Positions 16,576-49,127 of a stretch of 64,000 nt of DNA are shown piece after piece (position 1 is the first letter of the stretch; the number at the start of each line of letters is the position of its first letter). The translations under genes were made by a program, and so were the position numbers. The notes beneath the pieces are model-generated. The model saw only the letters and a list, made by a program, of their open reading frames with translations, was not told where the DNA came from and did no database searches. Origin of the DNA: a virus (Duplodnaviria > Caudoviricetes); IMG/VR virus record IMGVR_UViG_3300020420_000671; one strand, written 5' to 3'.

Positions 16576-16604
16576 TTGACATTTGACAAAGAAAGTAATA
16601 TAAT
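16576..16604 (+). promoter_or_regulatory. Consensus sigma70 promoter
   Basis: TTGACA-17 nt-TATAAT; ATG 7 nt downstream with no SD. Confidence 0.8.
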
Positions 16605-16610
16605 TTAACT

Positions 16611-17696
16611 ATGAGATTTAGAGATATTAAAATTGCTGAAGCGAATAAAGGATCTAACGTAGTAAGGTATAACACCGAACTGGCGATGTTGACTGCTTTC
16701 AGTGGAGGAACAACTTTAAAAGATATTCCAGATGAAGCACTTGTCAATCCTAAAGCAACAAAAGTTGAAATAAAAAAGGTAGCCAAGTACTTTGATCAAA
16801 AAAAGTTTGATCAATGGATGACAATTAGTAATACATATAAAGAAAAAATATTATCTCATAGTGGAAAATTACCTCAACAATATGATTGGGTTGGCGGAAG
16901 CAACATAGGACCAGTAGCTGATTTAGTATTTAAGGATCATCCAGCTAGTGGAATAAGTGTAAAAGACGCATCCGGAATTACTCTAGCAAATCTAACACCT
17001 AAGGCTCTAGGTTTGGAACCATTGAAGGGCAAAGATGTGTTTCAATCATATGCTGATAAAGAATTTAAAAAATTTAAGATAAGAGTTTTTAATTTAATGA
17101 TGGACGAAGCAGAAGCAAGTCCTGGACAAGTTATACATCCAAGACCTAGTGGAAAAGAACGAAGTATGATGTTCGATGAAGAAAGTAAAAAATTTGTAAT
17201 TAAATATGACAAAGGTGTATTGAATCTTGATAGGAATGAAGTAATAAGAACTTCACCAAAAAATGCTTTATGGCAAAGAGTATTTGGTGATTGGTATCAA
17301 TCTAATTTTCAAAAATACAAAGACATAATGCGGCCACTTGTAAAAACAATTTCAAGAAGCTTCAAAGAAATAATGGGTAATGCTCTTTCAGATAGTGATA
17401 CCCTAAAAAAACTTTTACAGTTTGAAGACAAACCTTACTACTATGCTACTCCAAAAAAAATGTATTTTGTTCCGTCTGCCAAAGAGGCAGGAGATCTAGA
17501 ACTTAAAGCAATTGACTATGATGATCCAGATGGTACCAGTCAATTATTTAAAGCAAAGATTGGTAATGTTAACAGTGACGATGGAGCAGTCATAGATATC
17601 TACATACGTTTTGCAAATGGATTATTTGCTACTAATTCAACAGCCCGAGTACAAAGTATTAAGAACCCTGAACTGATAGCTTGGGACCTCATATAA
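16611..17696 (+). CDS. Putative PD-(D/E)XK nuclease-like protein with capsid-targeting-like leader
   Basis: Leader MRFRDIKIAE; YNTEL, VADLVF...GISVK resembles the restriction-endonuclease core. Confidence 0.45.
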   Translation: MRFRDIKIAEANKGSNVVRYNTELAMLTAFSGGTTLKDIPDEALVNPKATKVEIKKVAKYFDQKKFDQWMTISNTYKEKILSHSGKLPQQYDWVGGSNIGPVADLVFKDHPASGISVKDASGITLANLTPKALGLEPLKGKDVFQSYADKEFKKFKIRVFNLMMDEAEASPGQVIHPRPSGKERSMMFDEESKKFVIKYDKGVLNLDRNEVIRTSPKNALWQRVFGDWYQSNFQKYKDIMRPLVKTISRSFKEIMGNALSDSDTLKKLLQFEDKPYYYATPKKMYFVPSAKEAGDLELKAIDYDDPDGTSQLFKAKIGNVNSDDGAVIDIYIRFANGLFATNSTARVQSIKNPELIAWDLI

Positions 17697-18558: not shown

Positions 18559-18587
18559 TTGACAAATATGTGTGAAATATGTATAAT
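18559..18587 (+). promoter_or_regulatory. Consensus sigma70 promoter
   Basis: TTGACA-17 nt-TATAAT upstream of clpA. Confidence 0.8.
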
Positions 18588-18613
18588 AAATAAAAAATTA
18601 GGAGTGTATAAGA

Positions 18614-20875
18614 ATGGTTGAACCATCTGAAGAATTACAGGTAGTTTTTGAAAAAGCAAATAAAGATGCTAAAAAGTTAAAACATGATTATGTTACTTTA
18701 GAGCACTTGTTTTTTGCGATGTGTTGTAGTGACAACTTTATGAAGATACTAGAAGGGTATGGAGTAACTATTACAAAACTTAAAGACGAACTACATGACT
18801 ATCTTCAAAACAAATTAGATGATATCAAGAGAACTGACGACAAGCCGTATAAACCAAAGAAAACACAAACTGTTGAAAGAGTCATGAACAGAGCTTTCAC
18901 TCAAGTCTTGTTTAGTGGTAGACAGCATATTGATATTACTGATGTATTTTTATCTATGCTTAATGAGAAAAAATCATTCAGCACATACATTGCGACAGCA
19001 AACGGAGTTAACAAAGATAAGTTTAATGAATATATTAACGCCGAATATGTTAGCACTATCGAAGATGAGGAATTAGCAGGAGTTGCCCAAAGGGCTTTAA
19101 GAGCATTTACGACTAACCTCAATACTAAAGTTACGCAAGGTAAAATAGATCCTGTAATTGGCAGACAAGACGAGCTTGAAACGATATGTTTAAGTTTAGG
19201 TAGGCGTTTAAAGAATAACGTTTTGCTAGTAGGAGATCCAGGCGTTGGTAAAACTGCTATAGCCGAAGGTTTAGCATATAGAATTGTTAACAAAGTTGTT
19301 CCTAAGTTCCTAGAAGAATATAGTGTTTACAATCTAGATATAGGCTCAATGTTAGCAGGCTCTAAATATAGAGGAGACTTTGAAGAAAGATTTAAATTAG
19401 TTATGTCAGCTATTAAAAAGCAAGGCAAAACAATAGTATTCATTGATGAAGCACACATGATTAACGGTGCTGGTGCTGGTGGCGGAAACAGCTCAAATGA
19501 TTTGGCCAATATGTTGAAACCAGCTCTAGGTAAAGGTGACATCAAGGTTGTTGCTTCAACCACTTGGGAAGAATATAGAAAATACTTTGAGAAAGATAGA
19601 GCACTAATGCGTAGATTTCAACGTGTAAGTGTTGATGAACCTGATAAGAAAACTTCAGAAGATATCCTTAAAGGTATTAAAAAGTATTACGAGGACTTTC
19701 ATAACGTAGTAATTACAGATGAGGCGATTGACGAGTCAATCAAATTAAGTGTCAAATACATGACTGATAAAAAATTACCTGATAAAGCTATTGACTTGAT
19801 TGATCTAGCATGTTCAAGATTTAATTTGAAAGAAAAAGTACCGGAAGTTAAGACTGTAACTCCTGAAGAAATAAAGTTCGAACTTGCTAAGGTAGTAAAT
19901 TTACCTCCAGAACAAATACAACAAAAAGAAACAAATAATTTAAGTAAACTTAATAAAAACTTAAAACTAAATGTATATGGCCAGGATAATGCTATAGATG
20001 AAATAGTTGATAAGATCTTGGTAGCACAGGCAGGACTTAAATCAGAAGATAAACCAATTGGTTCATTTGTTTTCATGGGTCCAACTGGTGTAGGTAAAAC
20101 TGAATTAGCAAAACAATTGGCTAAACATTTAAGCATTAATTTAGCAAGATTTGATATGAGTGAATATCAAGAGAAACATAGTGTAAGTAAGCTGATTGGT
20201 TCACCTCCAGGATATGTTGGTCATGATGAACATTCAGGACAGTTGATTAATAAACTACAGGAACATCCTAATTGTGTATTGTTACTAGATGAAGTAGAAA
20301 AAGCACATCCTGATATTTCGCAAATTCTATTACAGTTAATGGATAACGGAAAAATTACAGGTAGTGACGGTAAAGAAGCAGACGCTAGAAATTGTATTTT
20401 AATATTAACAACTAATCTTGGTGCTGAGCAGGCAGAAAAAAATACAATAGGATTTAGTCAAGATATGGATATCGCTTATGGAGATGAGGAATTTAAAAGA
20501 TTCTTTGCTCCTGAATTTAGAAATAGACTTGACGGTGTTGTTGTGTTTGGAAAACTAGACAAACCAATTATGTTAAAAATTGTTGGAAAATTCCTAGTTG
20601 AGTTGAGAAATATGTTAACGGATAAAAATGTAAAATGTGAAATATCTGATTCTGCTTTAGATCATCTAGTCGATAATGGGTTTGATAGCAAGATGGGTGC
20701 TAGACCTATGCAGAGATACATAGACAAAAACATTAAACGTCCTTTAAGTAAATTACTGTTGTTCGGTGAATTAAAAGATGGCGGCACAGTAAAAATTGAT
20801 ATTGAAAAAGATCAAATAAAACTTATTCCACTAGAAAAAAAGGTCACCCATGTTACTGAAAAAGAAAACAGCTAG
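18614..20875 (+). CDS. clpA: ClpA-type Hsp100 ATPase
   Basis: Clp-N domain, two AAA+ modules (GDPGVGKT, GPTGVGKT), no ClpB middle domain, IGF loop (NTIGF), GARPM. Confidence 0.92.
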   Translation: MVEPSEELQVVFEKANKDAKKLKHDYVTLEHLFFAMCCSDNFMKILEGYGVTITKLKDELHDYLQNKLDDIKRTDDKPYKPKKTQTVERVMNRAFTQVLFSGRQHIDITDVFLSMLNEKKSFSTYIATANGVNKDKFNEYINAEYVSTIEDEELAGVAQRALRAFTTNLNTKVTQGKIDPVIGRQDELETICLSLGRRLKNNVLLVGDPGVGKTAIAEGLAYRIVNKVVPKFLEEYSVYNLDIGSMLAGSKYRGDFEERFKLVMSAIKKQGKTIVFIDEAHMINGAGAGGGNSSNDLANMLKPALGKGDIKVVASTTWEEYRKYFEKDRALMRRFQRVSVDEPDKKTSEDILKGIKKYYEDFHNVVITDEAIDESIKLSVKYMTDKKLPDKAIDLIDLACSRFNLKEKVPEVKTVTPEEIKFELAKVVNLPPEQIQQKETNNLSKLNKNLKLNVYGQDNAIDEIVDKILVAQAGLKSEDKPIGSFVFMGPTGVGKTELAKQLAKHLSINLARFDMSEYQEKHSVSKLIGSPPGYVGHDEHSGQLINKLQEHPNCVLLLDEVEKAHPDISQILLQLMDNGKITGSDGKEADARNCILILTTNLGAEQAEKNTIGFSQDMDIAYGDEEFKRFFAPEFRNRLDGVVVFGKLDKPIMLKIVGKFLVELRNMLTDKNVKCEISDSALDHLVDNGFDSKMGARPMQRYIDKNIKRPLSKLLLFGELKDGGTVKIDIEKDQIKLIPLEKKVTHVTEKENS

Positions 20876-21892: not shown

Positions 21893-22159
21893 ATGGAAAA
21901 CTTTATCAACATCGTTTTTGACACAAAGCAAGAAGTAGATGACATAGTTGTCTCTGAAGTAGCAACATCAGCATCAAATGCCTTACTAGAAGAAGAAACA
22001 GGCTACGAGCTGTACGACACAAACGATGGCAAAACAGTTCTAACAGTTGAAACACATGTACAACTAGATGAACAAGCGTCAAATGATGTGGCAAAGAAAA
22101 TAGCAAATAAATTATTTGATTTAGGATATAATAACTTTGACATTGAAGTGAGTGTCTAA
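21893..22159 (+). CDS. Acidic hypothetical protein
   Basis: AAGGAAG SD; coupled to the next gene. Confidence 0.6.
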   Translation: MENFINIVFDTKQEVDDIVVSEVATSASNALLEEETGYELYDTNDGKTVLTVETHVQLDEQASNDVAKKIANKLFDLGYNNFDIEVSV

Positions 22160-23229
22160 TGCGTTTTTATCATTTTAAACTAGACGAAAAGGTTCGACCG
22201 CCACGTCCTCAGACTGGTTTAGATCCTGAGCGTCTAAAAAAAATTGATAGAATTACACGTAAACTACAAAGCGATCCTGAACTAGTAGATGAAATTTTTA
22301 CCCAGATAAGCACTAAAGCAAAAGACATAGAAGGCAATTTTATTAATAGATTTATAGCTATGTTGAATCCGGATAATACTAGACCGGAAGCAGATCAAGC
22401 ATTTTCAAACTTTTTAAGAAAGTATGCTGAAGTTATTTCCGAAGTTGAAAGTACAACAGAAGAAAAATTTGCTTTTATTGGTAATCTAGGAAAGAAAAGC
22501 TATGTAGACACAGGTAAACTTTTAAAGCCAGGAAAGTCAAGCTGGGACGATTGGTTAGCAAATGACGACTTTGCCAGAAAATTATTTGACCATGCGTTCG
22601 GCGATCCAAGACTTACTACTGACAATAAGGGTCCAGGCGAAGCGGCCCTGGCTATTCTTTCTCCAGATATAAAATTATCAATTGGCGGAAGTGGTGACAT
22701 AGAAGTAAAAAATACACCAGTTGAAGTAAAAGCGGCGGCTGGACAAAGCACAGGTGCTGGAAGGCTTACTCCAACAAAAAACACTCTCGGTAATTATGAT
22801 TCTAAGGTAGTAGCTAAAATGTTATTTCCAAACGATCAAACCAAGCAAGATGCGTTAAATCAAAATTATAGAAACTGTTCAGCAAATATTTTTGGTAAAT
22901 TTGTAGAAGATTTTCAACTAGAGACTAATCAAGTACAAACTTTACTATCTAATATATTCAAAGAAGAAAGCATACAAGACATGGTTTCTAAGGTTGCGGC
23001 AAAGGGTAAAAACATAACTGGAAAAGACCTTCTTGGATTAAGCATTTACAATTACGGTAGATCACAAAATGATGAACATTTTTTAATACTTGTTAAGTCC
23101 ACTAGATCCAGCTTATATTTCCAGATAGACAATTGGGATCAGCCTGGTCTACAATTTGGTTTAACTGTGTTTGGAAGCGATGCACGTACTGTAGGTCAAA
23201 CGCAAATTGGAATCTTAAAGAGAGCTTAA
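22159..23229 (+). CDS. Putative PD-(D/E)XK nuclease-like protein with capsid-targeting-like leader
   Basis: Leader MRFYHFKLDE; GPGEAAL...GDIEV...VEVK motif triad. Confidence 0.5.
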   Translation: MRFYHFKLDEKVRPPRPQTGLDPERLKKIDRITRKLQSDPELVDEIFTQISTKAKDIEGNFINRFIAMLNPDNTRPEADQAFSNFLRKYAEVISEVESTTEEKFAFIGNLGKKSYVDTGKLLKPGKSSWDDWLANDDFARKLFDHAFGDPRLTTDNKGPGEAALAILSPDIKLSIGGSGDIEVKNTPVEVKAAAGQSTGAGRLTPTKNTLGNYDSKVVAKMLFPNDQTKQDALNQNYRNCSANIFGKFVEDFQLETNQVQTLLSNIFKEESIQDMVSKVAAKGKNITGKDLLGLSIYNYGRSQNDEHFLILVKSTRSSLYFQIDNWDQPGLQFGLTVFGSDARTVGQTQIGILKRA

Positions 23230-23577
23230 ATTTTTTTCTCTATCTAAAAACTTATATTCAACTTTTTCTGGTTCAAACTGCTGTAAGGCATCAAATACTT
23301 TTTGTATATCTAAAGGACCGCATGTATAAACATCTAATTGTATTAACCCAGGTTTACATTCATCCCAAACATGTATAGCAACATGACTGGTTTCTATAAC
23401 AGTCACACAGGTAATACCTCTATTGCCTTCCATATCGCAATACTTTGCGTAGGGACCTAGCATGATTCTCATGCCTATTGACTCTATTAAACTTTTTGCC
23501 CAACCCACTATTTGATGTTCGTTATTAGGTGGATTCTTTACTTCTGACCTAACAATCAGATGCTTGTGCTGTAACAT
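23215..23577 (-). CDS. speD: Pyruvoyl-dependent S-adenosylmethionine decarboxylase family
   Basis: KHLI..., VIETSHVAIHVW, LDVYTCG. Confidence 0.85.
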   Translation of the reverse strand: MLQHKHLIVRSEVKNPPNNEHQIVGWAKSLIESIGMRIMLGPYAKYCDMEGNRGITCVTVIETSHVAIHVWDECKPGLIQLDVYTCGPLDIQKVFDALQQFEPEKVEYKFLDREKNLSSL

Positions 23578-23672
23578 AAGCGTATCCTTTTTAGGTTCTA
23601 CTTATCTCGAACTAACTTTTGTATTTACATATATTGATAAATACTTTATAATAACGTATACAAGGTGTTATC

Positions 23673-24542
23673 ATGACAAAAACATTTAAAGATTATCTAA
23701 AAGAAAGCGGTTTACAGTACTATACTGGTGTTAAAAAACACGGTGAAGAGTACATGAAAAAAGCGGCTAAAGCAGGTCGTGAAGGAGCTAGCCAAGAAGA
23801 ACTAGGACGCCTAAAGGACAAATACAGTAAAGCAGAAAAGAATAAAAAAACTACTGAAGCTGATATGCAACGTGGCATGGGTGCTTTAGATAAATTTAGA
23901 GAATTATATAGAAAAGGTATTGGCACAAATGATGACGAAGTTGTTTTGAAAGAGTTGATTGACGTAATTAATGATGATACTTTACAAGATGATTTTCCAC
24001 AACTTAAATCTTTTACAAGTGCATCACCGTTTGACGACTCAGAGATAGTCCAAGCAAAAGATGTACCTGGAAATAGTGCTGATGAAAAAATTATGTCACT
24101 CATAAAAGCAATTGATGATGATTCATGGGTAGATGGTTTCGCTCAAATGTTGACGAAAGATTTCAACATGAGTGATAATGAAGAACTTGATAGAGTTCAG
24201 GAACTTGCTGGTGTACAAACAAATGAAGAAACATATGATGGAGATGATTTCTATAATAACTATGGTGACATGTGGTACAACGAAGATGAGATCATGGACG
24301 AAGCAGAATATCAAGGACGTAAAGTAAAGCTAGGCAAACCAATGCGTGGCGATGTAAAAAAGTTCAAAGTATACGTTAAAGATCCAAAAACTAAAAATGT
24401 TAAAAAAGTAAACTTTGGTGATCCTAACATGAAAATTAAAAAATCTAATCCGGCACGTAGAAGAAGTTTCCGTGCTAGACACAACTGTGATAATCCAGGA
24501 CCAAGAACAAAAGCTAGATATTGGTCATGTAGGAAATGGTAA
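23673..24542 (+). CDS. Putative internal head protein (T4-like CTS) with C-terminal basic two-Cys module
   Basis: MTKTFKDYLKE closely resembles T4 IP leaders; late box GATAAATA at 23636; C-terminal AEYQGRKVKLGKP...RYWSCRKW. Confidence 0.6.
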   Translation: MTKTFKDYLKESGLQYYTGVKKHGEEYMKKAAKAGREGASQEELGRLKDKYSKAEKNKKTTEADMQRGMGALDKFRELYRKGIGTNDDEVVLKELIDVINDDTLQDDFPQLKSFTSASPFDDSEIVQAKDVPGNSADEKIMSLIKAIDDDSWVDGFAQMLTKDFNMSDNEELDRVQELAGVQTNEETYDGDDFYNNYGDMWYNEDEIMDEAEYQGRKVKLGKPMRGDVKKFKVYVKDPKTKNVKKVNFGDPNMKIKKSNPARRRSFRARHNCDNPGPRTKARYWSCRKW

Positions 24543-24896
24543 ATGAAAATATTTGAAATTTTTAATAAAGAAATAGAAGATAAAATGCCCTACGATGTAG
24601 TAGATGACGTTCATTTTCATTTGCTTAATGACGATATGTTTTATAGAAAATATTATCTTCCGTGTATGGAAAAAATAAGAGCAGAGAAAAATGAAAAAGT
24701 GATTCAAGGTCATATGGATCCTATGATCCATAAAGGAATCAATCATTATGTTATAAAATATGACATAGATAAAACACCCACTGATTTAATGACTCCAGAG
24801 GAAGTAAAATCATTAAAGGACAGGGTTTTGGATCACGAACGAAATCCTGATAAGGAGTTACAAAGTGCACCTGAGACAGATATTCGAAGACCGTAA
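24543..24896 (+). CDS. Putative internal head protein
   Basis: Leader MKIFEIFNKE. Confidence 0.5.
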   Translation: MKIFEIFNKEIEDKMPYDVVDDVHFHLLNDDMFYRKYYLPCMEKIRAEKNEKVIQGHMDPMIHKGINHYVIKYDIDKTPTDLMTPEEVKSLKDRVLDHERNPDKELQSAPETDIRRP

Positions 24897-25749
24897 AACG
24901 GCTGTCTTTGCTTTAGGTAGACTGAATCCAGCTACCATTGGCCATGAAAGACTAGTTAACAAAATCAAAGAACAAAAAGGTGATCCTTTCCTTTTCTTAA
25001 CTGACCGACCATCAAAATTACCTGACGATCCTTTAGCACCGCAAGAAAAATTAGAGTGGGCACAAAAAAGTTTTGACGGAATACAAATTAGATTAGCAAA
25101 AACAATAGCTACAGCGGCAAATCAATTATATAGACAAGGTTACAATGAAATTACATTCTTAGAAGGTGAAGATAAATTATTTAATATACTTAAAAATTAC
25201 AACGGAAAGTTTGATGGCAAAAAAGGTCCTATTGAATTTCCCTTTAAGTTCGATAAATTAAATTACGTTAGGCTAGAAAGAAATGCTGACGATCCTGGTG
25301 CTTCAGGAATGAGTGCTACAAAGCTAAGACAATTTGCTCAAAATAATGATCTAGAAAAATTTACTTCAGGACTAGCTCAAAAGGCACAACCAAATGCGGA
25401 AAAAATGATGCGTCAGTTACAAGGAGCATTAGGTGTTGATCCTGTTGAAGAAGATTTACAAGAGCTAGAAGTAAAACAGCAAAAACCAAAGATAGATGTA
25501 TTGAATAACATTGCCGCAAGGACAGATGGAAGACCTTTTCCTTTGAGTTGGAACGCAGGTAAAGATGAAATATCAGTTGGAGGTAAAATGTTTGTATCTC
25601 CAAAGACAGCAAATAAATTTTTACGTTTCTTCGATAATCAAGAAAAGGAAAATCAAGAACTTATGAAAAAAGCACTAGGAAGTGCTAAAACAGCCGCTCA
25701 GCTTTTTAAAAATTTAGGCTTTGAATTTAAACTTGATATGGAGAGATAA
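24865..25749 (+). CDS. HIGH-superfamily nucleotidyltransferase (cytidyltransferase-like) with CTS-like leader
   Basis: GTG start after AAGGAG; MHLRQIFE; GRLNPATIGH (HIGH-like) and GMSATKLR (KMSKS-like). Confidence 0.75.
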   Translation: MHLRQIFEDRKTAVFALGRLNPATIGHERLVNKIKEQKGDPFLFLTDRPSKLPDDPLAPQEKLEWAQKSFDGIQIRLAKTIATAANQLYRQGYNEITFLEGEDKLFNILKNYNGKFDGKKGPIEFPFKFDKLNYVRLERNADDPGASGMSATKLRQFAQNNDLEKFTSGLAQKAQPNAEKMMRQLQGALGVDPVEEDLQELEVKQQKPKIDVLNNIAARTDGRPFPLSWNAGKDEISVGGKMFVSPKTANKFLRFFDNQEKENQELMKKALGSAKTAAQLFKNLGFEFKLDMER

Positions 25750-25961
25750 TGGATATTAAAACTCTTCAAAAACTTGCTGGCATAAATGAATTTCAAGGTT
25801 ACAGACCTGTTAGCATAGAAAATATGAGTCATACTGCTAGTGCTTTGAAGGCAAAGGAAAAGCGTTTAGGAGTAAAACCAGGCGATCGCGATTGGTTCAA
25901 GTTGTGGTTTAACTTACCTTACCTTACTGGTCCTGCTCAATTTAGGAGTAGAAAGAAATGA
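25749..25961 (+). CDS. Small putative internal head protein
   Basis: MDIKTLQKLAGINE; basic remainder. Confidence 0.55.
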   Translation: MDIKTLQKLAGINEFQGYRPVSIENMSHTASALKAKEKRLGVKPGDRDWFKLWFNLPYLTGPAQFRSRKK

Positions 25962-26506
25962 AAATAAGACAAATTTTTGAAGCAGTTGAAGGTAAACTAG
26001 AACTAACAAAATTGCCTTATAAAACAGGAGATCTTTCTCCAGTTCTTTCTAAGGACAATGTAGAATATCATTATAATGTGCTATCCAAAGGATATGTAAA
26101 TAGATATAATAATCAAGAAGGTGATCCAAAATTTAATTATGGTGGTGCTATGTTACACAATTTATTTTGGTCACAACTAAAGAAACCAGCAGGGTCAAAT
26201 TTACCTACAGGAGCAATTAAAAATTTAATTGAAGAAAACCATGAAGACTATTCTACGTTTAAAAATAGCGTGGTAGTTTTAGCAATGGGTATACAAGGTA
26301 GTGGTTGGGTCTATCTATCAAAAAACGGAGATCTTAAAACAACTCCTAATCAAAGTTATAAAACAGATATACTAATGCCTATAGATATGTGGGAACATAG
26401 TTTTACTGATTATATTCCGGCAAAAGATGCTAAGAAAAAGTATTTACAAAACATATTTAAGATAGTAAACTGGGACGTAATAAACAATAGGATAGACGGA
26501 AAATGA
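25958..26506 (+). CDS. Fe/Mn superoxide dismutase with CTS-like leader
   Basis: MKIRQIFEAVE; LPYKTGDLSPVLS, YHY, LHNLFW, GSGWVYL, DMWEH (all four metal ligands present). Confidence 0.88.
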   Translation: MKIRQIFEAVEGKLELTKLPYKTGDLSPVLSKDNVEYHYNVLSKGYVNRYNNQEGDPKFNYGGAMLHNLFWSQLKKPAGSNLPTGAIKNLIEENHEDYSTFKNSVVVLAMGIQGSGWVYLSKNGDLKTTPNQSYKTDILMPIDMWEHSFTDYIPAKDAKKKYLQNIFKIVNWDVINNRIDGK

Positions 26507-29500
26507 AATTTGGTGATTTCAAAGTAAAAGAAGAAGCCGCTGGCGTTGGCATAATTACAAAACAAAACGCAACCAAAGATGTTCCTGTTGGCGGTGAATA
26601 TATGAATGTGAAAAAACTTGGTTTGGGCAAAGGTAAGCCAAAAAAACATCCTAAAAAAGTACGAGGATCAAAGACCAATGTATTATTCAATTTAGGAATG
26701 GCCGAGAAGGAAGACAAAGGCGAAGACATGAAAGGTTTTGATCCTGAAACAGTACAAGCCCTAGCTAGACTTAGATCCAAATATCCACATGCCAAAGATC
26801 CGTTAGACGCACTTCTAAAATCAGTTCTTGCTACAGATAGAGATAACGATGCTGTTGACGATACGCAAGATGATAAGATCAGTAAAAACAAAACAACGGT
26901 TAGTAAACTTGAACCTGAGATTATAAGATTAAAAAGCAGATTGAGAGATGTAGAACTTCAGTTGAAAAATAAAGTGAAGGTAGGAGAGGCAGAACAATTA
27001 GACGAATTTATCCCCGCAGTGGCCGCAAGAATTGCTACTAGTGTTTTACCTAACATCGCAAAAAATTCTTCGCACCTAGGAGCCACAGGAGCTGGTACAG
27101 CAATAGGTGATAAGTTATTCAAACAGATTAAAAAAACTAGAAATGCCAATAAAGGTGTAGGACTAAAGGGTAGAAATCTAAGAGCTAAACAACTTTCACA
27201 AACCAATGAAGTTACAGCAAAGGATTTAAGTAGCGACAGCGAAGTTTACGTCGATATGGATGGCGTTCTAGCTGATTTCTTTGGTGCTTGGAAAAAACTT
27301 GTAGGTAAAGATTGGCGACAAATAAAAGATTTAGATGGAGCGTTACAGAAGATTAGGGATAAGGAAGATTTTTGGTTAAACATTCCTATTACTTCAAATG
27401 CTATGAATCTTTTAAATTTGATAAAAGAACTTAAAGGCAAATATAATATATTAAGTGCTCCTCTTCCAAACGATCCTAATGCTGAACCCCACAAACGTGA
27501 ATGGATCAAAAAGAATCTATCAGCCTTTCCACCGAGCAAGGTTATAATTACATCTAATAAAGCAGTACACGCTACCCAACCAGACGGAACACCAAACATC
27601 CTAATAGATGACTTTGGGAAAAATATTGAAAAATGGGAAGCGGCAGGCGGTGTTGGATTCAAACACAAGGATCACAAGTTTGAAAGAACTGTTAAAAATC
27701 TTAAACAAAATATGAAAGAAGATCTAGAAGAGCAACAGTTAGATGAATTTTTTCAATATTTTAAAATGTTAAAATATGGTTGGAAAACAGGCATGTGGCT
27801 GTGGAACAACAAATGGGCTATTGCGTTTATAGGCATTTCTTACAAGGCTTTTAAATGGGTTGCTGATGCTATAGCATGGCTTAAACCCTTCCTTGACAAT
27901 CCAGTAGTAAAAGCATTAGGAAGATATGGATTACCTGCTATAGGAGTTGCTATTGCGTTATATGGTGGAAAAAAACTATACGACCAAATAACAAAAGCAG
28001 AGAACGAAAAAGACTTGGAAAAAATATTAGCAAACTTTGAAGCAGATCAAGAAGAACTTGCTATGCTTAAAAAAGAATTAGAAATTATATCGAAAAAAAG
28101 CAAAACTACTGAAGCAAAAATGAGCAAAGATTCCATTAAAAGCATACACAAAACAGCTGACAAAATTAAAGATAAACCAAAAGCCAAAAAGTCAATAGGC
28201 AATTGGGCAAAAGAAAGAGGAATGGATCCTGAAGGAGCAATTTACGCAATAGCTACAAATATGAAAAAGCGTAAGCAAGGAAAAAAAATTACAGGATTAG
28301 GCAAGGAGTCTTACACAAGAGATGAACTTCCACAAATAAGTCAAAAACATTTAGTGAAGATTCCGCACACGATGGAAACTGTTTATGTCAAAGACATAGT
28401 CCCAGTACAAAAAGAAAGATTAAAAGAAAATCATAAAAAACAACTTTACAAAATACTAGATGGAAGATTTAATCCTATTGTGGTAGACTGTTACGATAGA
28501 ATAGTCAACGGTCATCACAGATATGACATCCTTAAAATGCTTCAGATGGAAAGCATTACAGTTGCTAAACTTCCTTTTACATTAGAATTTTTATTAGAAA
28601 TAACTAGAAGAGATTTCTTAAAAGGGCTTGGCGCCACAGCGGCAATGTCCATGGTACCGAAGGCCGCAAAAGCGTTGGCCAACAACAAGGAACAATGGTA
28701 TGTTATAGATGAAAAAGGCAGATTACAAGGACCTATGGATAGTAATAAAGCAAAAACTGTATCCATTGCTTATCCAAAAAAATTACCGGCTATAGAACCT
28801 GCTCCTGAAGGTTTTGAAATAATAATTGCCCAAGGATCAAGTACTAAATTGAATATGGCTTTTACAAAAGCCGAGTTTGCTATAAAGAAAATATATGCTA
28901 GAAGATTTCCTGGAAAGACTGTGAATGTAAATCGCAAAATAATTAAATTACAGGGTAGAGCAATAGAGGCGGCAGGTTCATCTTATGTAGCTACTCAGAG
29001 TGCTTATGTTAAGAAAACTACAGAAGAAAGCGTTGAAGAAGGAAATTTATTATCAAATCCACAGAACTCTATTTTGGTTAGAAAAAAAGATGGTTATGAC
29101 CATTATAAACTTGCCACGCACATAGCAAACATAAAAGGAATGTCACCAAAGGTTGCCGCTAGGAATAAGCAAGACATATTCATTCAATTTTATGGTGGTG
29201 AAAAAGAAAAACAATACATGATGAAAAATCTTAAACGTATAGGATATGATGTACAACCTGCTGATGGATATAAAGATACACATTTCGACGAAAACATAGA
29301 CGGATCATACATATTAAGAGTGAGAGAAAATTTTGCTGATGGTAAGAAAAAAGGTAAAAGTAGACCAGGACGTGTTAAACGTTCAGGAGCAAGTTGTAAA
29401 GGATCAGTTACAAGTTTAAGAGCAAAAGCAAAGAAAGCATCAGGTGAACGTGCTAAGATGTATCATTGGTGTGCTAATATGAAGGGTGGTAAAAAGAAAA

Positions 29501-30423
29501 CTGAAGCATATACCCAAGATGAATTTTTTAAAATTTTAGTAGAAAGTACTCCACAACAGCTCGAAGAAGGTATAGCAGATACACTTAAAAAACTTCCTAA
29601 GAATTTATTATCAAAAGTGACACCTATAATTAAAAAGATCCCAAAGACAGCAAAAAATTTAACCTTAATGGCAGTATTGCTTGGTACAATGGTAAATGCT
29701 GTTGCGGCAGGAGATATGGCCAAAGTCAATACACCACTTGATAAACTTAATAATATGACAACTATGAGCACTACAATGGACACAGGTACTGATGCTGACG
29801 TTGGGCCAGGGCATACAATGCCTGACAAAATAAAGGTATTAAAAATGCCAACACCTCCACCAGCACCGGGTGCAGATACTCCAGATGGAACAAAAAATGA
29901 TGGTACAAACACACAGACAACAAAAGATGGTAATCGTACTGTGTCAAGTGGAGCAGGTACATATACATTTTCACCAGATGGGAAATTATTAAAGTATGAA
30001 ACTCCTAAAATAAAAGGATATCAACAAATACATGATCTAGTTAAAAAAACAGTCACAGTTGATGCTAATACATCTGTTACAATGGACAAAGATTTTGGTA
30101 ACTTATCCAAAGCAGATAAAGAATTATTGAAAAAGAATGATCCTAATTTTGATAAAAGTACATCAGTAATAGATCAAAAAGCAACTTATGACATGAGCGG
30201 TAACCTTATAAGCAAAGATCATACTGGTATAAAGTCCGGAGCAGTATCGATTGGTATTGGTGGAGATGGAAATAAGAGTTTTAAATTTGACGCAGGAGGA
30301 GGAAAGGTATATAAAGCAAGTAGTGCCGATATGCCAGCGGCTAAGAAAACTTTAAGCAAAATGCAGACGGATTTGAACAAAGCAAAAGATCAGAGTGCGC
30401 CATTTGCAAACAAATCGACCTAG
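26503..30423 (+). CDS. Modular polyprotein (HAD 5'-nucleotidase, membrane segment, ParB/Srx-like domain, Tat-signal domain, basic module, Sec-signal domain)
   Basis: DMDGVLADF...ILIDD HAD motifs; PIVVD...IVNGHHR ParB-like motif; TRRDFLKG; modules bounded by xLxE-type linkers. Confidence 0.7.
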   Translation: MKFGDFKVKEEAAGVGIITKQNATKDVPVGGEYMNVKKLGLGKGKPKKHPKKVRGSKTNVLFNLGMAEKEDKGEDMKGFDPETVQALARLRSKYPHAKDPLDALLKSVLATDRDNDAVDDTQDDKISKNKTTVSKLEPEIIRLKSRLRDVELQLKNKVKVGEAEQLDEFIPAVAARIATSVLPNIAKNSSHLGATGAGTAIGDKLFKQIKKTRNANKGVGLKGRNLRAKQLSQTNEVTAKDLSSDSEVYVDMDGVLADFFGAWKKLVGKDWRQIKDLDGALQKIRDKEDFWLNIPITSNAMNLLNLIKELKGKYNILSAPLPNDPNAEPHKREWIKKNLSAFPPSKVIITSNKAVHATQPDGTPNILIDDFGKNIEKWEAAGGVGFKHKDHKFERTVKNLKQNMKEDLEEQQLDEFFQYFKMLKYGWKTGMWLWNNKWAIAFIGISYKAFKWVADAIAWLKPFLDNPVVKALGRYGLPAIGVAIALYGGKKLYDQITKAENEKDLEKILANFEADQEELAMLKKELEIISKKSKTTEAKMSKDSIKSIHKTADKIKDKPKAKKSIGNWAKERGMDPEGAIYAIATNMKKRKQGKKITGLGKESYTRDELPQISQKHLVKIPHTMETVYVKDIVPVQKERLKENHKKQLYKILDGRFNPIVVDCYDRIVNGHHRYDILKMLQMESITVAKLPFTLEFLLEITRRDFLKGLGATAAMSMVPKAAKALANNKEQWYVIDEKGRLQGPMDSNKAKTVSIAYPKKLPAIEPAPEGFEIIIAQGSSTKLNMAFTKAEFAIKKIYARRFPGKTVNVNRKIIKLQGRAIEAAGSSYVATQSAYVKKTTEESVEEGNLLSNPQNSILVRKKDGYDHYKLATHIANIKGMSPKVAARNKQDIFIQFYGGEKEKQYMMKNLKRIGYDVQPADGYKDTHFDENIDGSYILRVRENFADGKKKGKSRPGRVKRSGASCKGSVTSLRAKAKKASGERAKMYHWCANMKGGKKKTEAYTQDEFFKILVESTPQQLEEGIADTLKKLPKNLLSKVTPIIKKIPKTAKNLTLMAVLLGTMVNAVAAGDMAKVNTPLDKLNNMTTMSTTMDTGTDADVGPGHTMPDKIKVLKMPTPPPAPGADTPDGTKNDGTNTQTTKDGNRTVSSGAGTYTFSPDGKLLKYETPKIKGYQQIHDLVKKTVTVDANTSVTMDKDFGNLSKADKELLKKNDPNFDKSTSVIDQKATYDMSGNLISKDHTGIKSGAVSIGIGGDGNKSFKFDAGGGKVYKASSADMPAAKKTLSKMQTDLNKAKDQSAPFANKST

Positions 30424-30444
30424 GAAATAAAGGTAAATAATACT

Positions 30445-30663
30445 ATGTTAGTTAGAGAAATAATTAAGGAATACGCTACACAAGGAGCGACTGTCGCAGG
30501 TAATGTACCAGCAGTAGCGAACCCTAGTATGGCTTATGGACATAGACCTAAGGGTAAAAATGGCTTACCACAAGCTCCACAAAAGAAAAACAAGGATGGA
30601 ACAGCTAAAAACGCATTGGATATTAGTAACAATTTAATGGGCGGTAAGACCATTAAGAGATAA
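30445..30663 (+). CDS. Small basic putative internal head protein
   Basis: GTAAATA box 6 nt before ATG; leader MLVREIIKE. Confidence 0.55.
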   Translation: MLVREIIKEYATQGATVAGNVPAVANPSMAYGHRPKGKNGLPQAPQKKNKDGTAKNALDISNNLMGGKTIKR

Positions 30664-30682
30664 ATACTAAAAAGGAAGCAAA

Positions 30683-31618
30683 ATGAGAGAAAAGGACCTT
30701 AAAGAAGATTTAGCAACGCTGGCTTACAAAGCCGAAGCAGACCATGAAGTACAGATGGCTAGATCAGATCTATATAAAATAGCCAAATACTCTATCAAGC
30801 TACACGAAATGATGAAGGGTGTAACTGAGCAAGAGGGTATTGAAGGTTGGGTTCAATCTAAAATTACAAAAGCCGCAGATTACATAGGTTCAGTATACCA
30901 TTATCTAGACTATGAAATGAAGTTTGATGAAATGACTGAAGCTAAAAAAGCAAAACCAGATTACATTGATATTGACGGCGATGGCGATAAAAAAGAGCCA
31001 ATGAAAAAAGCAGTCAAGGATAAAGCTAAGAAGAAAAAAGTTAAAGAAGGTATGATGGACGACGAAGTAAAATCCATACTTATGAAGCATCCAAAAGAAT
31101 TCGCAAAACTGAGAGCATCAGAAGATTTGATGGACGTTTATGGCACTCCGTTATATCAAGAATTGTTTGAATATTTTTCAGATTCAGGTGAAATGCCATA
31201 TGGTACTCAAAAGGGCAGAGACGGTGATCCTGTCCAGTGGATGAACGATGAGCTAGATGACATGGGTGTATTTGACCAACCAGAAAAAATGAATGTATCA
31301 GCCGCAGACAAAAGATTAAACACACCTGCTTTCAAAAAAATGCAAGCCGGAGATAAACGTTATAGTGATAAAACTGAAGAAACATACGAAAGTTATCTAC
31401 AGGAAAAACTTAACAAAACAAGAAAGTATAAAACACTACTGGAATCTGTTGGAAAACCAATTTCAGAAGAAGAATTTGACACCCTTGCTGAGAAACAAGA
31501 TGCTTGTTATCACAAGGTAAAGTCCAGATACAAAGTTTGGCCTAGCGCCTATGCCTCTGGTGCTCTAGTTCAGTGCCGTAAAAAGGGTGCTAAGAACTGG
31601 GGTAACAAGAGCAAGTGA
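30683..31618 (+). CDS. Modular putative internal head protein
   Basis: GATAAATA box at 30659; MREKDLKE; DIDGDGD Ca-binding-like loop; C-terminal KQDAC...VQCRKKGAKNWG module. Confidence 0.55.
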   Translation: MREKDLKEDLATLAYKAEADHEVQMARSDLYKIAKYSIKLHEMMKGVTEQEGIEGWVQSKITKAADYIGSVYHYLDYEMKFDEMTEAKKAKPDYIDIDGDGDKKEPMKKAVKDKAKKKKVKEGMMDDEVKSILMKHPKEFAKLRASEDLMDVYGTPLYQELFEYFSDSGEMPYGTQKGRDGDPVQWMNDELDDMGVFDQPEKMNVSAADKRLNTPAFKKMQAGDKRYSDKTEETYESYLQEKLNKTRKYKTLLESVGKPISEEEFDTLAEKQDACYHKVKSRYKVWPSAYASGALVQCRKKGAKNWGNKSK

Positions 31619-32388
31619 AACTAAGACAACTCATAAGCATTATCGAAAACGCTGACCAAGACAGTACAGAAGTCACTGTTGGCAATTATACCACAACACA
31701 TTTTTATATGTGTGGAAGTGCGATCAAGACAGCAGAAAAACACGGGGAAAAGCCCGGTATGGAAGATTTAGTCCGTTTACAAGATATGATTTATAAACTT
31801 GAAAAAGCAGTTATGGATACTGGCGAAGCAACATCTGAAGCAAAACAATTTGCTCAAAAATTACATAACGAAATAATGGATAAAGCAAAAGAGATTGGCA
31901 TCGAAGACGAAATTGTTGACTACCAAGAAGATCATAGAGACAGTATTTTAAAAGGCGATCCTAAGCCTGGATTTGGGCGTGTGGATGTTGAAGAAAATTG
32001 GGAAATTACAGATGAAGGTACTAGATGTTGGAAGGGTTATGAACGTAAAGGCATGAAGACCATGTTCGGAAAACGTGTACCTAACTGTGTAAAAAGAGAA
32101 CATGTAGACTATTGTGTGAACTGTGGTGATCTTGTATTTTCAGAAGATATGAATTTACATGAAGATTTAAAAAAATGGTTCAAACAAAAATGGGTCCGCT
32201 TTGGTCCAGACGGAAAAGTACGTGGATCATGCGGAGGAAAAAGTGAAGGTGAAGGAAAGCCAAAGTGTTTACCAGCCGCAAAGGCCTACGCTATGGGCAA
32301 GAAGAAAAGAAAAACTTCTGCCGCTCGTAAACGTAGGAAAGATCCTAATGCAGATAGACGTGGTAAGGCTAAAAACGTTAAAACTTAG
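31615..32388 (+). CDS. Modular putative internal head protein
   Basis: GTG start; MKLRQLISIIE; two basic two-Cys modules following Glu residues. Confidence 0.55.
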   Translation: MKLRQLISIIENADQDSTEVTVGNYTTTHFYMCGSAIKTAEKHGEKPGMEDLVRLQDMIYKLEKAVMDTGEATSEAKQFAQKLHNEIMDKAKEIGIEDEIVDYQEDHRDSILKGDPKPGFGRVDVEENWEITDEGTRCWKGYERKGMKTMFGKRVPNCVKREHVDYCVNCGDLVFSEDMNLHEDLKKWFKQKWVRFGPDGKVRGSCGGKSEGEGKPKCLPAAKAYAMGKKKRKTSAARKRRKDPNADRRGKAKNVKT

Positions 32389-32397
32389 GAGTAGAAT

Positions 32398-32511
32398 ATG
32401 GAAAACACTTGTAAATGCGATAAATGTAATCATGATTGTCACTGTGATACTGAATGCCAAGAATGCGTAAATGATATCTGTACAGGTTGTGAATGCGATC
32501 ACTGCAGATAA
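32398..32511 (+). CDS. Metallothionein-like Cys-rich peptide (37 aa, not in ORF track)
   Basis: AGGAG SD; MENTCKCDKCNHDCHCDTECQECVNDICTGCECDHCR has 11 Cys and 3 His. Confidence 0.65.
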   Translation: MENTCKCDKCNHDCHCDTECQECVNDICTGCECDHCR

Positions 32512-32627
32512 AAGACATACCTATCTACGAAAAGTGGAGTTCTAAATATAAAAAGAGCATAAACTGTTCTAATCCTAAAGGCTTTTCACAAAAAGCTCAT
32601 TGTGCCGGAAAGAAAAAGAAGAAATAA
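32493..32627 (+). CDS. 44-aa CTS-like leader plus basic two-Cys micro-protein (not in ORF track)
   Basis: MRSLQIKDIPIYE|KWSSKYKKSINCSNPKGFSQKAHCAGKKKKK. Confidence 0.6.
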   Translation: MRSLQIKDIPIYEKWSSKYKKSINCSNPKGFSQKAHCAGKKKKK

Positions 32628-35014: not shown

Positions 35015-37687
35015 ATGAGTTACGTAGACGCCTATTTTGACAGAGATTCTGACATCATCAGAGTAGTAGAACGAGTTGATGGTAAAAGAATTTTTCAAGA
35101 ACATCCTGTAAAATATACTTTTTATTATGACGACCCGAAAGGTAAGCACAGAAGCATCTATGGAGATCCAATCTCGCGTATTGTTTCAAGAAACACAAAA
35201 GACTTTCGCAAAGAACTAGCAATAAACAATAAAAGAAAACTTTTTGAAAGTGATATCAATCCTATATTCCAATGTTTGAGTGAAAACTATCTTAATCAAG
35301 ATGCTCCAAAACTTAATGTAGCATTTTTTGACATTGAAACAGATTTTGATCCTGAAAGAGGATTTGCTGACCCAAGCGATCCTTTTATGCCTATCACTGC
35401 TATTACGGTACATTTACAATGGCTTGATGCCTTGATAACTTTAGCAGTTCCGCCAAAGACTTTGACAATGGAGGAGGCAAAAGAACAGACTAAGGAATGG
35501 GGACAGGAATGTGTACTCTTTGAAAAAGAAGAAGATATGTTACAAGCATTCTTGGATCTGATTCAAGATAGTGATATACTAACAGGTTGGAACAGTGAAG
35601 GTTATGATATTCCTTATACTGTGAATAGAGTAAGCAGAGTCCTAAGCAAAGATGATACAAGACGTTTTTGTTTATGGAAACAACTTCCGAAAAAACGTGA
35701 ATACGAAAAATATGGTAAATCTGCTGAAACCTATGACCTAATAGGTAGAGTACATTTAGATAGTTTAGAATTATATCGTAAATATACATATGAAGAAAGA
35801 CATACTTACAGACTTGATGCCATTGGTGAACTTGAAGTTGGTGAAAAGAAAACTGTGTATGAAGGTACACTCGATCAACTTTATAACAATGACTTCAGAA
35901 CATTCATCGAATACAACAGACAAGACGTTGCACTACTGGACAAGCTGGACAAAAAACTAAGATTCATCGATCTTAGTAATGAATTGGCACATGCGAATAC
36001 TGTTTTGCTACAGACCACTATGGGTGCTGTCGCAGTTACAGAACAAGCTATTGTGAATGAAGCACACAGGCGTGGTATGCGAGTGCCTAATAGGCCGAAA
36101 CGTGATCCTGAGTCTTCGACAGCGGCTGGTGCCTATGTCGCTTTTCCTAAAAAAGGCTTACACAAATGGATAGGATCAATGGACTTGAATTCACTGTATC
36201 CATCTGTTATTAGAGCATTAAACATGGATCCAGCAACTATTGTTGGACAACTACGCCCAACACTTACTGATGAATATCTAAATGAAGCTATGAACTTACA
36301 AAAGAAATCCTTTGCTGGTGCTTGGGAAGGAAAGTTTGGCACATTAGAATATGAAGCAGTAATGGATCAGAAGAGAGATGTTGCTATTACTGTTGATTGG
36401 GAAAATGATAAAGAAGATGTTCTAAGTGGAGCAGAAATTTACAAAATAATTTTTGAAAGCAACAAACCTTGGATGCTTTCCTCAAACGGAACAATCTTTA
36501 CAACTGAACATGAGGGTGTAATTCCAGGATTGCTTAAACGTTGGTATCAAGAAAGAAAAGAATTACAAGGCCAACTTAAAAAGGCAAAAGATGCTGGTAA
36601 TTCTATTGAAATAGAATATTGGGATAAAAGACAGTTAGTAAAAAAGATTAACCTAAATAGTTTATACGGTGCTATTCTAAATCCTGGTTGTAGATTCTTT
36701 GATAAACGTATTGGTCAATCAACAACACTGAGTGGTAGAACTATTGTTAAACACATGTCAGCAGAAGTAAACAAAGTAATTACAGGTACATATGATCATG
36801 TAGGTGATGCGGTTATATATGGAGATACAGATTCTGTTTATTTCAGTGCTTTTCCTATACTTAAAAAAGATATTGATGCTGGTAAAATTCCTTGGAGCAA
36901 AGAAAACGTTATTACACTATATGATCAAGTAGCAGAGGCGGCAAACGCAACATTTGACAAGTTCATGGCTGAAGCTTTTCATTGCCCTAAAAGTCGAGCA
37001 GAGGTTATTGCGGCTGGTAGAGAAATCGTAGCAGAAAGTGGCTTATACATTACAAAGAAAAGATATGCGGCATTGGTTTATGACTTAGAAGGATTTAGAA
37101 CTGATACAGAAGGCAAGCCTGGTAAAGTAAAAGCAATGGGTTTAGACTTGCGTAGATCAGATACTCCGGTATTCATGCAAGAGTTTCTAAGTGAACTTCT
37201 ACTAATGGTATTAACTAATAAAACTGAAAAAGATGTACTAGACAGAATTACTGAATTTAGAACTGACTTTAAACAACGCCCAGGTTATGAAAAAGGTTCT
37301 CCAAAGAGAGCAAACAAGATAGGACACTATCAGAGACTTGAACAAAAGCAAGGAAAAGCTAACATGCCTGGACATGTAAGAGCAAGTATCAACTGGAATA
37401 CACTAAAACGTATGAATGGAGACAAGTATTCGCAGGAAATCGTAGATGGTATGAAAGTAATTGTTTGTAAACTAAAACAAAATCCATTAGGATATACCTC
37501 CGTTGCTTATCCAACAGATCAACTACGTATTCCAGATTGGTTTAAAGAACTTCCGTTTGATAATGATGCGATGGAGGAAACAATAATTGACAATAAACTA
37601 GGAAACTTAATAGGTGTGTTGAATTACGATTTAGAAAATACAAAACAAAACAACACTTTCAACAGCCTATTTGACTTTGGAGAGTAA
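35015..37687 (+). CDS. polB: Family B DNA polymerase
   Basis: FDIETD exonuclease I, GWNSEGYDIPY, DLNSLYPS, KKINLNSLYG, YGDTDS, KKRYA. Confidence 0.97.
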   Translation: MSYVDAYFDRDSDIIRVVERVDGKRIFQEHPVKYTFYYDDPKGKHRSIYGDPISRIVSRNTKDFRKELAINNKRKLFESDINPIFQCLSENYLNQDAPKLNVAFFDIETDFDPERGFADPSDPFMPITAITVHLQWLDALITLAVPPKTLTMEEAKEQTKEWGQECVLFEKEEDMLQAFLDLIQDSDILTGWNSEGYDIPYTVNRVSRVLSKDDTRRFCLWKQLPKKREYEKYGKSAETYDLIGRVHLDSLELYRKYTYEERHTYRLDAIGELEVGEKKTVYEGTLDQLYNNDFRTFIEYNRQDVALLDKLDKKLRFIDLSNELAHANTVLLQTTMGAVAVTEQAIVNEAHRRGMRVPNRPKRDPESSTAAGAYVAFPKKGLHKWIGSMDLNSLYPSVIRALNMDPATIVGQLRPTLTDEYLNEAMNLQKKSFAGAWEGKFGTLEYEAVMDQKRDVAITVDWENDKEDVLSGAEIYKIIFESNKPWMLSSNGTIFTTEHEGVIPGLLKRWYQERKELQGQLKKAKDAGNSIEIEYWDKRQLVKKINLNSLYGAILNPGCRFFDKRIGQSTTLSGRTIVKHMSAEVNKVITGTYDHVGDAVIYGDTDSVYFSAFPILKKDIDAGKIPWSKENVITLYDQVAEAANATFDKFMAEAFHCPKSRAEVIAAGREIVAESGLYITKKRYAALVYDLEGFRTDTEGKPGKVKAMGLDLRRSDTPVFMQEFLSELLLMVLTNKTEKDVLDRITEFRTDFKQRPGYEKGSPKRANKIGHYQRLEQKQGKANMPGHVRASINWNTLKRMNGDKYSQEIVDGMKVIVCKLKQNPLGYTSVAYPTDQLRIPDWFKELPFDNDAMEETIIDNKLGNLIGVLNYDLENTKQNNTFNSLFDFGE

Positions 37688-48014: not shown

Positions 48015-48017
48015 GAG

Positions 48018-49059: not shown

Positions 49060-49084
49060 CAAAAACCTAAATAAAGTATATAAT
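49056..49084 (+). promoter_or_regulatory. Consensus sigma70 promoter
   Basis: TTGACA-17 nt-TATAAT upstream of folE. Confidence 0.8.
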
Positions 49085-49127
49085 AAACAGAAATGGCAAT
49101 CCACTGCCTTAACATCGGAGATGAAAA

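Follow-up and report, generated by a model that had tools for sequence, protein, structure and literature searches.

Bacteriophage T4 targets internal proteins to its head by means of a capsid-targeting sequence (CTS), MKTYQEFIAE, a leader of about ten residues that is clipped once from proteins that are highly basic (PMC8442874). The internal proteins of the T-even phages have only this CTS in common (PMC3012670), and T4 Alt is cut at ITE-6 and LTE-619 (PMC5694885). Among jumbo phages, phiKZ and SPN3US carry propeptides that mostly exceed 100 residues and follow the motif (S/A/G)-x-E (PMC5694885), and in phage P1 fewer than 30 N-terminal residues are signal enough for the large protein DarB to be loaded into the capsid for delivery (PMC9024508). 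Here we analysed a 64-kb stretch of viral DNA (IMG/VR record IMGVR_UViG_3300020420_000671), referred to throughout as the window, in which a gene at 16611 and a run of genes at 22159-32627, the run being called the cassette, encode proteins beginning with a short leader of related build. The initial annotation had taken this leader for a T4-type capsid-targeting signal on unrelated cargo, expanded peculiarly in this phage. Our analysis supports the first idea: as judged from sequence comparison, the leaders are probably T4-type capsid-targeting, protease-clipped propeptides on unrelated cargo, supported by junctions conserved in deep protein families, by the same junctions in polyproteins, by a protease gene in relatives, by a tagged gene in the head module of the relative G002 and by tagged proteins in purified virions of Pseudomonas phage PA5oct. 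The second idea has to be abandoned, as leader use appears instead to be lineage-wide in T4-related jumbo phages.

By analogy, the cassette is most likely of the same kind as the T4 CTS and internal-protein system. With T4 IPI, IPII, IPIII and Alt (CTS, protease gp21) it shares a leader of about ten residues of the same build, ending in (L/I)-x-E, on unrelated and often basic proteins; relatives of the window phage encode a gp21-family protease and arrange their head genes in the order of T4, and hypervariable cargo stands behind a constant tag. The leader MKIRQIFEAVE and T4 MKTYQEFIAE show the same build (M-K, a polar or acidic middle, a hydrophobic residue and x-E), ten residues being too few for homology, and the T4 CTS fails the strict pattern defined below because it has T at position 3. 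The differences are that the cassette comprises at least a dozen tagged genes whereas T4 has three or four, that its cargo includes recognisable enzymes (superoxide dismutase (SOD), nucleotidyltransferase, NT5C nucleotidase and restriction-endonuclease-like proteins), that it contains multi-module polyproteins with internal junction sites, and that its leaders differ between genes in both sequence and length whereas those of T4 are nearly identical; the window system is also known from sequence alone. The S80 proteases of phiKZ and SPN3US (gp175 and gp245) offer a parallel in that jumbo phages package dozens of proteins and a gp21-related protease cuts them after the Glu of short motifs, sometimes at several sites of a protein; however, leaders in the window lineage have 8-17 residues with L or I at P3 and so do not qualify as phiKZ-type propeptides, and the protease of the relatives belongs to Peptidase_S77. 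The P1 Dar proteins differ in having no consensus tag and in being loaded stepwise via partner proteins, and gp21-type leader removal is not described for them. In the literature, which we covered incompletely, we found no marine or T4-related jumbo phage for which tags of this sort are described.

The window has a GC content of 35% and carries nearly all of its genes on the plus strand. Its T4-type DNA polymerase (35015-37687) is closest to those of the jumbo myophages Sinorhizobium phage Phosso (50%), Agrobacterium phage Atu_ph07 (45%) and Vibrio phage 2.275.O (42%), and the window belongs to a marine jumbo myophage of low GC content, a distant relative of T4. No DNA nearly identical to the cassette was found among phage records by megablast. 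All eleven N-termini listed in the initial annotation were recovered at their positions, each at the first start codon of its own open reading frame (ORF); two of these starts (24865 and 31615) are GTG, and orthologues keep both N-termini. A twelfth tagged gene, 25749, was absent from that list and has a second kind of leader, MDIKTLQKLAGINE. Across the twelve genes (16611 and the run 22159-32627) the leader takes the form M-(R/K)-hydrophobic-x-(E/D/Q)-hydrophobic...(L/I/V)-x-E, is amphipathic and 8-14 residues long, and heads bodies with different or no family matches; seven of the leaders are strict and five looser, and those of 24865 and 25958 have RQIFE in common.

To quantify the leader, all six frames were scanned from every ATG, GTG and TTG start in ORFs of at least 40 aa with the strict pattern M-[KRH]-[ILFV]-x-[DEQH]-[ILVF]-x(0-6)-E. 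The window contains seven matches, every one a genuine gene start (16611, 22159, 24543, 24865, 25958, 26503 and 31615), compared with 0.1 on average and at most 1 in codon-shuffled windows. A loose test, requiring only [LIV]-x-E ending at residue 5-14, was passed by 12 of the 14 plus-strand genes within 22159-32627 vs 10 of the 78 genes elsewhere in the window (Fisher p = 1e-7). The leader is thus enriched over other N-termini, a comparison that the initial annotation had proposed as a check, and its strict form is missing from the window's genes for replication, repair and metabolism (among them clamp loader, polymerase, PhoH and FolE). A relative with 49% GC, G001, has 11 strict-leader ORFs vs about 1.5 in shuffles, one of them adjoining the capsid gene, which means that the leader is not a by-product of AT-rich starts; at internal Met positions of G001 the pattern fits only 2 of 3817.

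Three protein families indicate that the leader is under selection. The family of 16611 offers 108 distinct N-termini with identities down to 31%, in which a leader of 9-17 residues has R or K at position 2 (97/108), E or D at position 5 (98/108) and F, I, L or V at position 6 (101/108). Glu directly precedes the conserved body (GGxS..RYN) in 75 of 79 cases, and P3 is L or I in 76 of 78. T4 gp21 generally cleaves after (L/I)-x-E, and the aligned junction of the 16611 family is the specificity attributed to that enzyme. In the family of 22159 (26 homologues, 39-80% identity) neither M1 nor R2 varies, and the leader, MR[FYA]x[EQD][FL]..E, is followed by an indel-rich variable linker. SOD homologues at 62 loci on IMG/VR viral contigs all have an N-terminal extension ending in hydrophobic-x-E and followed by A, S, T, G or K, the sequence of which drifts (for example MKYDQITE/A, MSLMRQYIDIVE/T, MKEYIKLFE/A and MRFQHILE/A, the slash marking the junction). 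The leader also moves with single genes into unrelated contexts: the 22159 homologue of the contig L100 sits between bilin reductase and curli-like genes.

The same junction recurs inside long proteins. The bodies of the cassette are made up of recurring modules that relatives freely shuffle, and four basic two-Cys modules (WSxKYKxSIxC, NFADGKxKGKSRPGRVKR, DLxKWFKQKWV and GTRCWKGY) are always preceded by hydrophobic-x-E, whether they stand after a leader or within a long protein. The NFADG module follows the leader in a 66-aa protein of L055 (MRFAELVE/NFADG) and is internal in the 1306-aa protein of the window (YILRVRE/NFADG); the KWS module is found as MRYIELTE/KWSK in L041 and internally as ...ELKELQE/KWSA, and the DL.KWF module as MRAHEFITE/DLRKWF and internally as ...MNLHE/DLKKWF. 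Likewise, the module of 32493 follows MRYIELTE in L041 and ...LQE or ...LGE inside proteins of 465-794 aa, and the two modules of 31615, preceded there by ITDE/GT and NLHE/DL, directly follow the leader in L041, L047, L051 and L055. This arrangement fits a single protease site serving both leader removal and polyprotein cutting. Hundreds of marine phages contain the basic modules, one example being a multi-module protein that T4-like cyanophages encode between their terminase genes.

A gene for a gp21-like protease, which the initial annotation had proposed to look for, is present in relatives. Both G001 (453 kb, judged complete) and G002 (243 kb) encode a gp21-family protease (Peptidase_S77, 90 bits each, above the cut-off), and a gp21-type protease is annotated in PA5oct as gp152. 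The G002 head module reads 66-aa MRYKELKE gene, acidic protein, protease, gp22-like scaffold and capsid protein, an order matching that of T4, and the G002 capsid propeptide ends in YLAE/AAS.

Virion data are available for PA5oct, a distant relative of the window phage whose SOD is 35% identical. Its virions were purified on CsCl and 93 proteins were identified by electrospray ionization tandem mass spectrometry (ESI-MS/MS) (PMC7318152); we read these 93 virion-positive proteins from the flags in the GenBank record. PA5oct resembles the window phage in a syntenic DnaJ-ClpA neighbourhood, in an SOD homologue whose leader is related and in several virion proteins starting with M-K/R-hydrophobic-x-D/E-hydrophobic...E. 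Over six frames of the whole genome the strict pattern finds nine ORF starts, six of which are annotated starts of proteins detected by mass spectrometry (MS); another match lies within the gp22-like gene, two codons after its annotated start, between the protease and capsid genes, and another on a 64-aa gene beside two MS-positive genes. At annotated starts the strict leader is borne by 6 of 93 virion-positive proteins vs 1 of 368 others (p = 3e-4), that is, six of the seven tagged proteins are in virions. If the pattern is derived only from the window, the figures are 5/93 vs 1/368 (p = 0.0015). The SOD homologue EST35_0261, which starts MNDSIKKYISIAE/AASS and has a looser form of the leader, is also MS-positive in virions. 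Term searches of the main text of the PA5oct paper (Lood et al. 2020) turned up neither a prohead protease nor internal proteins.

From the analogy with the internal proteins of T4 and with Alt, we infer the following course. During prohead assembly the leader would dock its protein onto the scaffolding core; a gp21-family prohead protease would then cleave after the leader Glu, and the leader would depart while the mature protein would remain in the head of the window phage with the DNA, to be delivered into the host by injection. Synthesis may be timed late. The same protease would probably also cut the multi-module proteins at hydrophobic-x-Glu, releasing basic two-Cys modules and enzyme domains, and the small, very basic two-Cys modules are likely to be DNA-associated internal proteins. 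A broader proposal, that T4-related jumbo phages throughout the lineage use "tag plus polyprotein" loading in which the head protease both removes the tag and dices the polyproteins at hydrophobic-x-Glu, is put forward tentatively, and we consider it doubtful rather than probable.

Several observations weigh against the capsid-targeting interpretation. The virion proteomic evidence comes from the distant PA5oct, not from the window phage or its close relatives, and the strict pattern was fixed after some PA5oct N-termini had been seen. Four cassette genes (23673, 30445, 30683 and 32493) match only the loose form, the background of which is about 13-17%, and in PA5oct the loose [LIV]xE motif is found in 18 of 89 virion and 50 of 294 non-virion proteins (p = 0.53); because it does not separate the two groups, we dropped it as PA5oct evidence. 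The PA5oct virion list also contains leaderless enzymes, namely ribonucleotide reductase, thymidylate synthase, FolE, QueD and DNA ligase (MK797984.1, e.g. 160598-164076, 167093-169724 and 176918-178288), so MS detection there is not fully specific; these enzymes either enter by another loading route or are abundant proteins that co-purified. No Peptidase_S77 protease was found in five related fragments, each 22-35% complete. A homologue from S-B43 bears the label "structural protein", but no experiment behind this label could be located, and it was left out of the argument. The 1306-aa protein has 13 [LIV]xE sites where 12.9 are expected, and since this number equals chance, the positions of the module junctions are the sole evidence for a polyprotein. 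Finally, sigma70-like promoters stand before 16611 (12/12, at 16576-16604) and before 23673 (11/12, at 23624-23652), strong enough that purely late expression is not indicated. The internal-protein genes of T4 are expressed early as well as late.

Other explanations for the shared start were compared with capsid targeting. The leader could mark components of the prohead core, comparable to T4 gp22, gp67 and gp68, which are degraded and expelled and would be neither retained nor delivered. The same leader does occur on small head-module genes near the protease (the 66-aa gene of G002 and EST35_0150 of PA5oct) and on the gp22-like EST35_0153 of PA5oct, which was not detected in virions; however, an intact SOD, nucleotidyltransferase and nucleotidase would make no sense as disposable scaffold, six of the seven tagged annotated PA5oct proteins and the SOD homologue with its looser leader are found in mature virions, and the polyprotein has no dense set of cut sites, all of which makes this explanation unlikely. 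We give still less credence to a tag read by some other machine, such as an enzyme modifying ribosomally synthesized peptides in the manner of RiPPs (ribosomally synthesized and post-translationally modified peptides), the phage chaperones DnaJ and ClpA, or an export system. It draws on the DnaJ and ClpA genes directly upstream of the cassette (17710-20875), a pair that precedes virion genes in PA5oct as well, but no radical S-adenosylmethionine or other modifying enzyme is encoded next to the cassette, single genes carry the tag with them into unrelated surroundings (L100), and Sec or Tat (twin-arginine translocation) export would call for a longer and less polar leader. Moreover, the invariant (L/I)-x-E before the body and the identical junction in polyproteins fit a protease site, not a binding tag.

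Two further explanations deny the peptide a role. In one, the shared start is a DNA-level recombination linker for the swapping of bodies, as has been proposed for the internal-protein loci of T-even phages. Modules are indeed heavily shuffled among the relatives, and the RQIFE common to two of the leaders would suit such a linker; yet what is conserved is a residue pattern rather than a sequence, it is kept at 49% GC as at 35%, and an invariant Glu with L or I at P3 would be needless. As the sole explanation a linker is therefore quite improbable, and it complements capsid targeting rather than excluding it. The other attributes the leaders to chance or start bias, Lys being frequent at the second codon of an AT-rich phage of 35% GC. 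Starts with M-K/R are common in AT-rich genomes and the loose motif has the background given above, but seven strict starts against 0.1 in codon shuffles, the near absence of the pattern from internal Met positions of G001 and its persistence at 49% GC already contradict this explanation, as does its absence from the window's genes for replication and metabolism, and we regard it as the most improbable of all.

With T4-type capsid targeting as the preferred explanation, the tagged genes can be described individually; all lie on the plus strand. The gene at 16611..17696 encodes a 361-aa member of a large phage family with the strict leader MRFRDIKIAE. Its body is weakly like restriction endonucleases of the HinP1I/MspI type: the confidently predicted fold (predicted local distance difference test (pLDDT) 88.5) has as its best VIA-align matches HinP1I (Z 5.3 over 179 residues) and MspI (Z 5.1), which are weak, and D104 and S116-x-K118 are invariant in the family (D...S-x-K). 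The 356-aa product of 22159..23229 (leader MRFYHFKLDE) has a tentatively PD-(D/E)xK-like body in which, over an alignment of 26 homologues, E161, D180, E189 and K191 are invariant (D...E-x-K); its fold, also predicted with confidence (pLDDT 79), likewise has restriction endonucleases as top VIA-align matches, again weak (Z <= 4.0). A Foldseek search of the PDB with the two folds returned nothing at E <= 0.001, and paralogy between 16611 and 22159 was not detectable by BLASTP. The nuclease assignment of both proteins is tentative.

The gene at 23673..24542 (289 aa) has a looser leader, MTKTFKDYLKE, that is kept in L003 and L004, and a C-terminal basic two-Cys module (FKVYVKDPKT...) matching phrog_7595 (3.5e-12) and widespread in marine phages, including pelagiphages, roseophages and others. 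It is followed by 24543..24896 (117 aa), which has the strict leader MKIFEIFNKE and no family match in Pfam or PHROG. The GTG-started gene at 24865..25749 (leader MHLRQIFE) encodes a 294-aa cytidylyltransferase-like nucleotidyltransferase (phrog_3041, 1.8e-29); its leader is kept in L004 (67% identity), and in relatives this domain stands at the head of polyproteins in which NT5C and basic modules are found as well. The compact Fe/Mn SOD is encoded at 25958..26506, where the 11-residue leader MKIRQIFEAVE precedes the SOD domain (Sod_Fe_C 2.7e-17, 63.1 bits, cut-off 20.9; Sod_Fe_N 3.5e-11, 43.9 bits, cut-off 27); we call it compact because Sod_Fe_N is matched over just 39 of 82 profile positions.

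Between these two enzyme genes lies 25749..25961, coding for a 70-aa basic protein with the second kind of leader, whose peptide L-K-x-L-A-G-I also heads SOD homologues in L050-L056. The fuller form D-I-x-x-L-K-x-L-A-G-I is located at 25749-25790 in the window, at 3140-3181 in L065 and at the C-terminus of EST35_0153 in PA5oct (MK797984.1 ~85800-85830). It stands at the extreme C-terminus of the gp22-like scaffolds of G002 and PA5oct (EST35_0153) and of a 636-aa G001 protein, is N-terminal in small proteins and SOD homologues, and lies within multi-module proteins, a PA5oct virion protein among them. The peptide may be a second prohead-core docking signal.

The largest tagged gene, 26503..30423, encodes a 1306-aa multi-module protein, a probable polyprotein with the leader MKFGDFKVKE. 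It contains an NT5C nucleotidase (aa 248-382; Pfam NT5C above the cut-off, PHROG 5'-3' deoxyribonucleotidase 8e-23), hydrophobic segments, a piece with a ParB-like PHROG match (aa 654-689), a Tat-type signal (aa 699-718) and, after RVRE, a basic two-Cys module (aa 942). The internal twin-arginine signal (ITRRDFLKGLGATAAMSMVPKAAKA, window 28597-28656; TAT_signal 23.8 bits vs a cut-off of 22.7) comes directly after FLLE and would become N-terminal only if the protein were cut there, at residue 699. At aa 168 and 415, EQLDE/F junctions flank the NT5C domain, and cuts at these junctions would expose an N-terminal Phe, a ClpS/ClpAP N-degron residue; the repeated QLDE/F junction was not found in relatives.

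Downstream, 30445..30663 encodes a 72-aa basic protein (predicted mature isoelectric point (pI) 10.4) with the looser leader MLVREIIKE, kept in L003, L004 and L047. The protein after the leader (ATQGATVAGNVPAVANP; loci window 30445-30663 and L065 3185-3439) resembles the stretch behind the predicted maturation site of the major capsid protein of a relative (AASAGATGAGNVAALNKV). The product of 30683..31618 (311 aa, looser leader MREKDLKE) ends in a basic two-Cys module (KVWPSAYASGALVQCRKKG; phrog_727, 2.9e-22) that is present in 365 phage records, mostly T4-like cyanophages, and stands alone in L047 as the 51-aa protein MRIHEIVE/GKKDACYHK. The gene at 31615..32388 (257 aa, GTG start, strict leader MKLRQLISIIE) encodes two basic two-Cys modules (GTRCWKGY... 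and DLKKWFKQKWV...), and the 44-aa product of 32493..32627 consists of the looser leader MRSLQIKDIPIYE and one such module (KWSSKYKKSINC...). A 37-codon ORF with 13 Cys (MENTCKCDKCNHDCHC..., 32398-32511), which is only a possible gene, overlaps the start of 32493. Eight of the twelve predicted mature products have a pI of at least 8.9. The description of the bodies as unrelated in the initial annotation thus holds for the SOD (Pfam), the cytidylyltransferase-like protein (PHROG) and the NT5C/HAD and ParB-like modules, and the term nuclease-like is weakly supported.

The initial annotation also placed late promoter boxes at 23636, 30433 and 30659. The exact sequence TATAAATA is absent from all three positions; the 7-mer ATAAATA is found at 23637 and 30660 but not at 30433. 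ATAAATA is rare in the window (17 copies vs 36 expected), lies on the coding strand in 15 of the 17 cases and mostly 10-35 nt before start codons (e.g. 2734, 11775, 14780, 21530, 23637, 30660, 32634, 53199 and 58053), a distribution suggestive of a late promoter like that of T4 in which the first base is relaxed.

Several neighbouring genes deserve mention. Directly upstream of the cassette, at 17710-20875, a DnaJ gene is followed by a ClpA-type double-AAA+ gene; the corresponding pair of PA5oct (192924-195842) also precedes virion protein genes, and PA5oct additionally has ClpX, ClpS and ClpP. A role of DnaJ and ClpA in the handling of head cargo is conceivable from this arrangement. In the middle of the cassette, on the minus strand, an S-adenosylmethionine decarboxylase gene without a leader occupies 23215-23577 (Pfam AdoMet_dc, 9e-15). 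Further downstream, at 46579-49817, Pfam identifies phosphoribosyltransferase, 2-oxoglutarate-Fe(II) oxygenase and GTP cyclohydrolase I genes, which by their domains are consistent with a DNA-modification pathway; PA5oct also encodes FolE, QueD and QueE. The 346-kb Joint Genome Institute (JGI) contig L100, which has the 22159 homologue, carries at 7716-15515 genes for ClpS, heme oxygenase, ferredoxin-dependent bilin reductase and curli-type CsgF/CsgG-like proteins, and its pigment genes are a hint that part of the lineage may infect cyanobacteria.

If T4-type capsid targeting is correct, the cargo that abundant uncultured ocean jumbo phages bring into their hosts would be readable from sequence by means of the tag, and it would include unexpected pre-made proteins, namely superoxide dismutase, nucleotide-metabolism enzymes and nuclease-like proteins. 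The leaders would also make available compact, naturally occurring tags by which foreign proteins might be put into large capsids. Several small basic modules, frequent in cyanophages, pelagiphages and roseophages yet lacking annotation, would gain a role as internal head proteins. Should the doubtful tag-plus-polyprotein proposal be true as well, SOD, nucleotide enzymes and the two restriction-endonuclease-like proteins would be pre-loaded, the latter two being able to attack host DNA on entry, the unmasked Tat signal could direct one injected fragment to the host periplasm, and the two-Cys modules found dispersed over hundreds of marine phage genomes would function inside the head as DNA-associated proteins.

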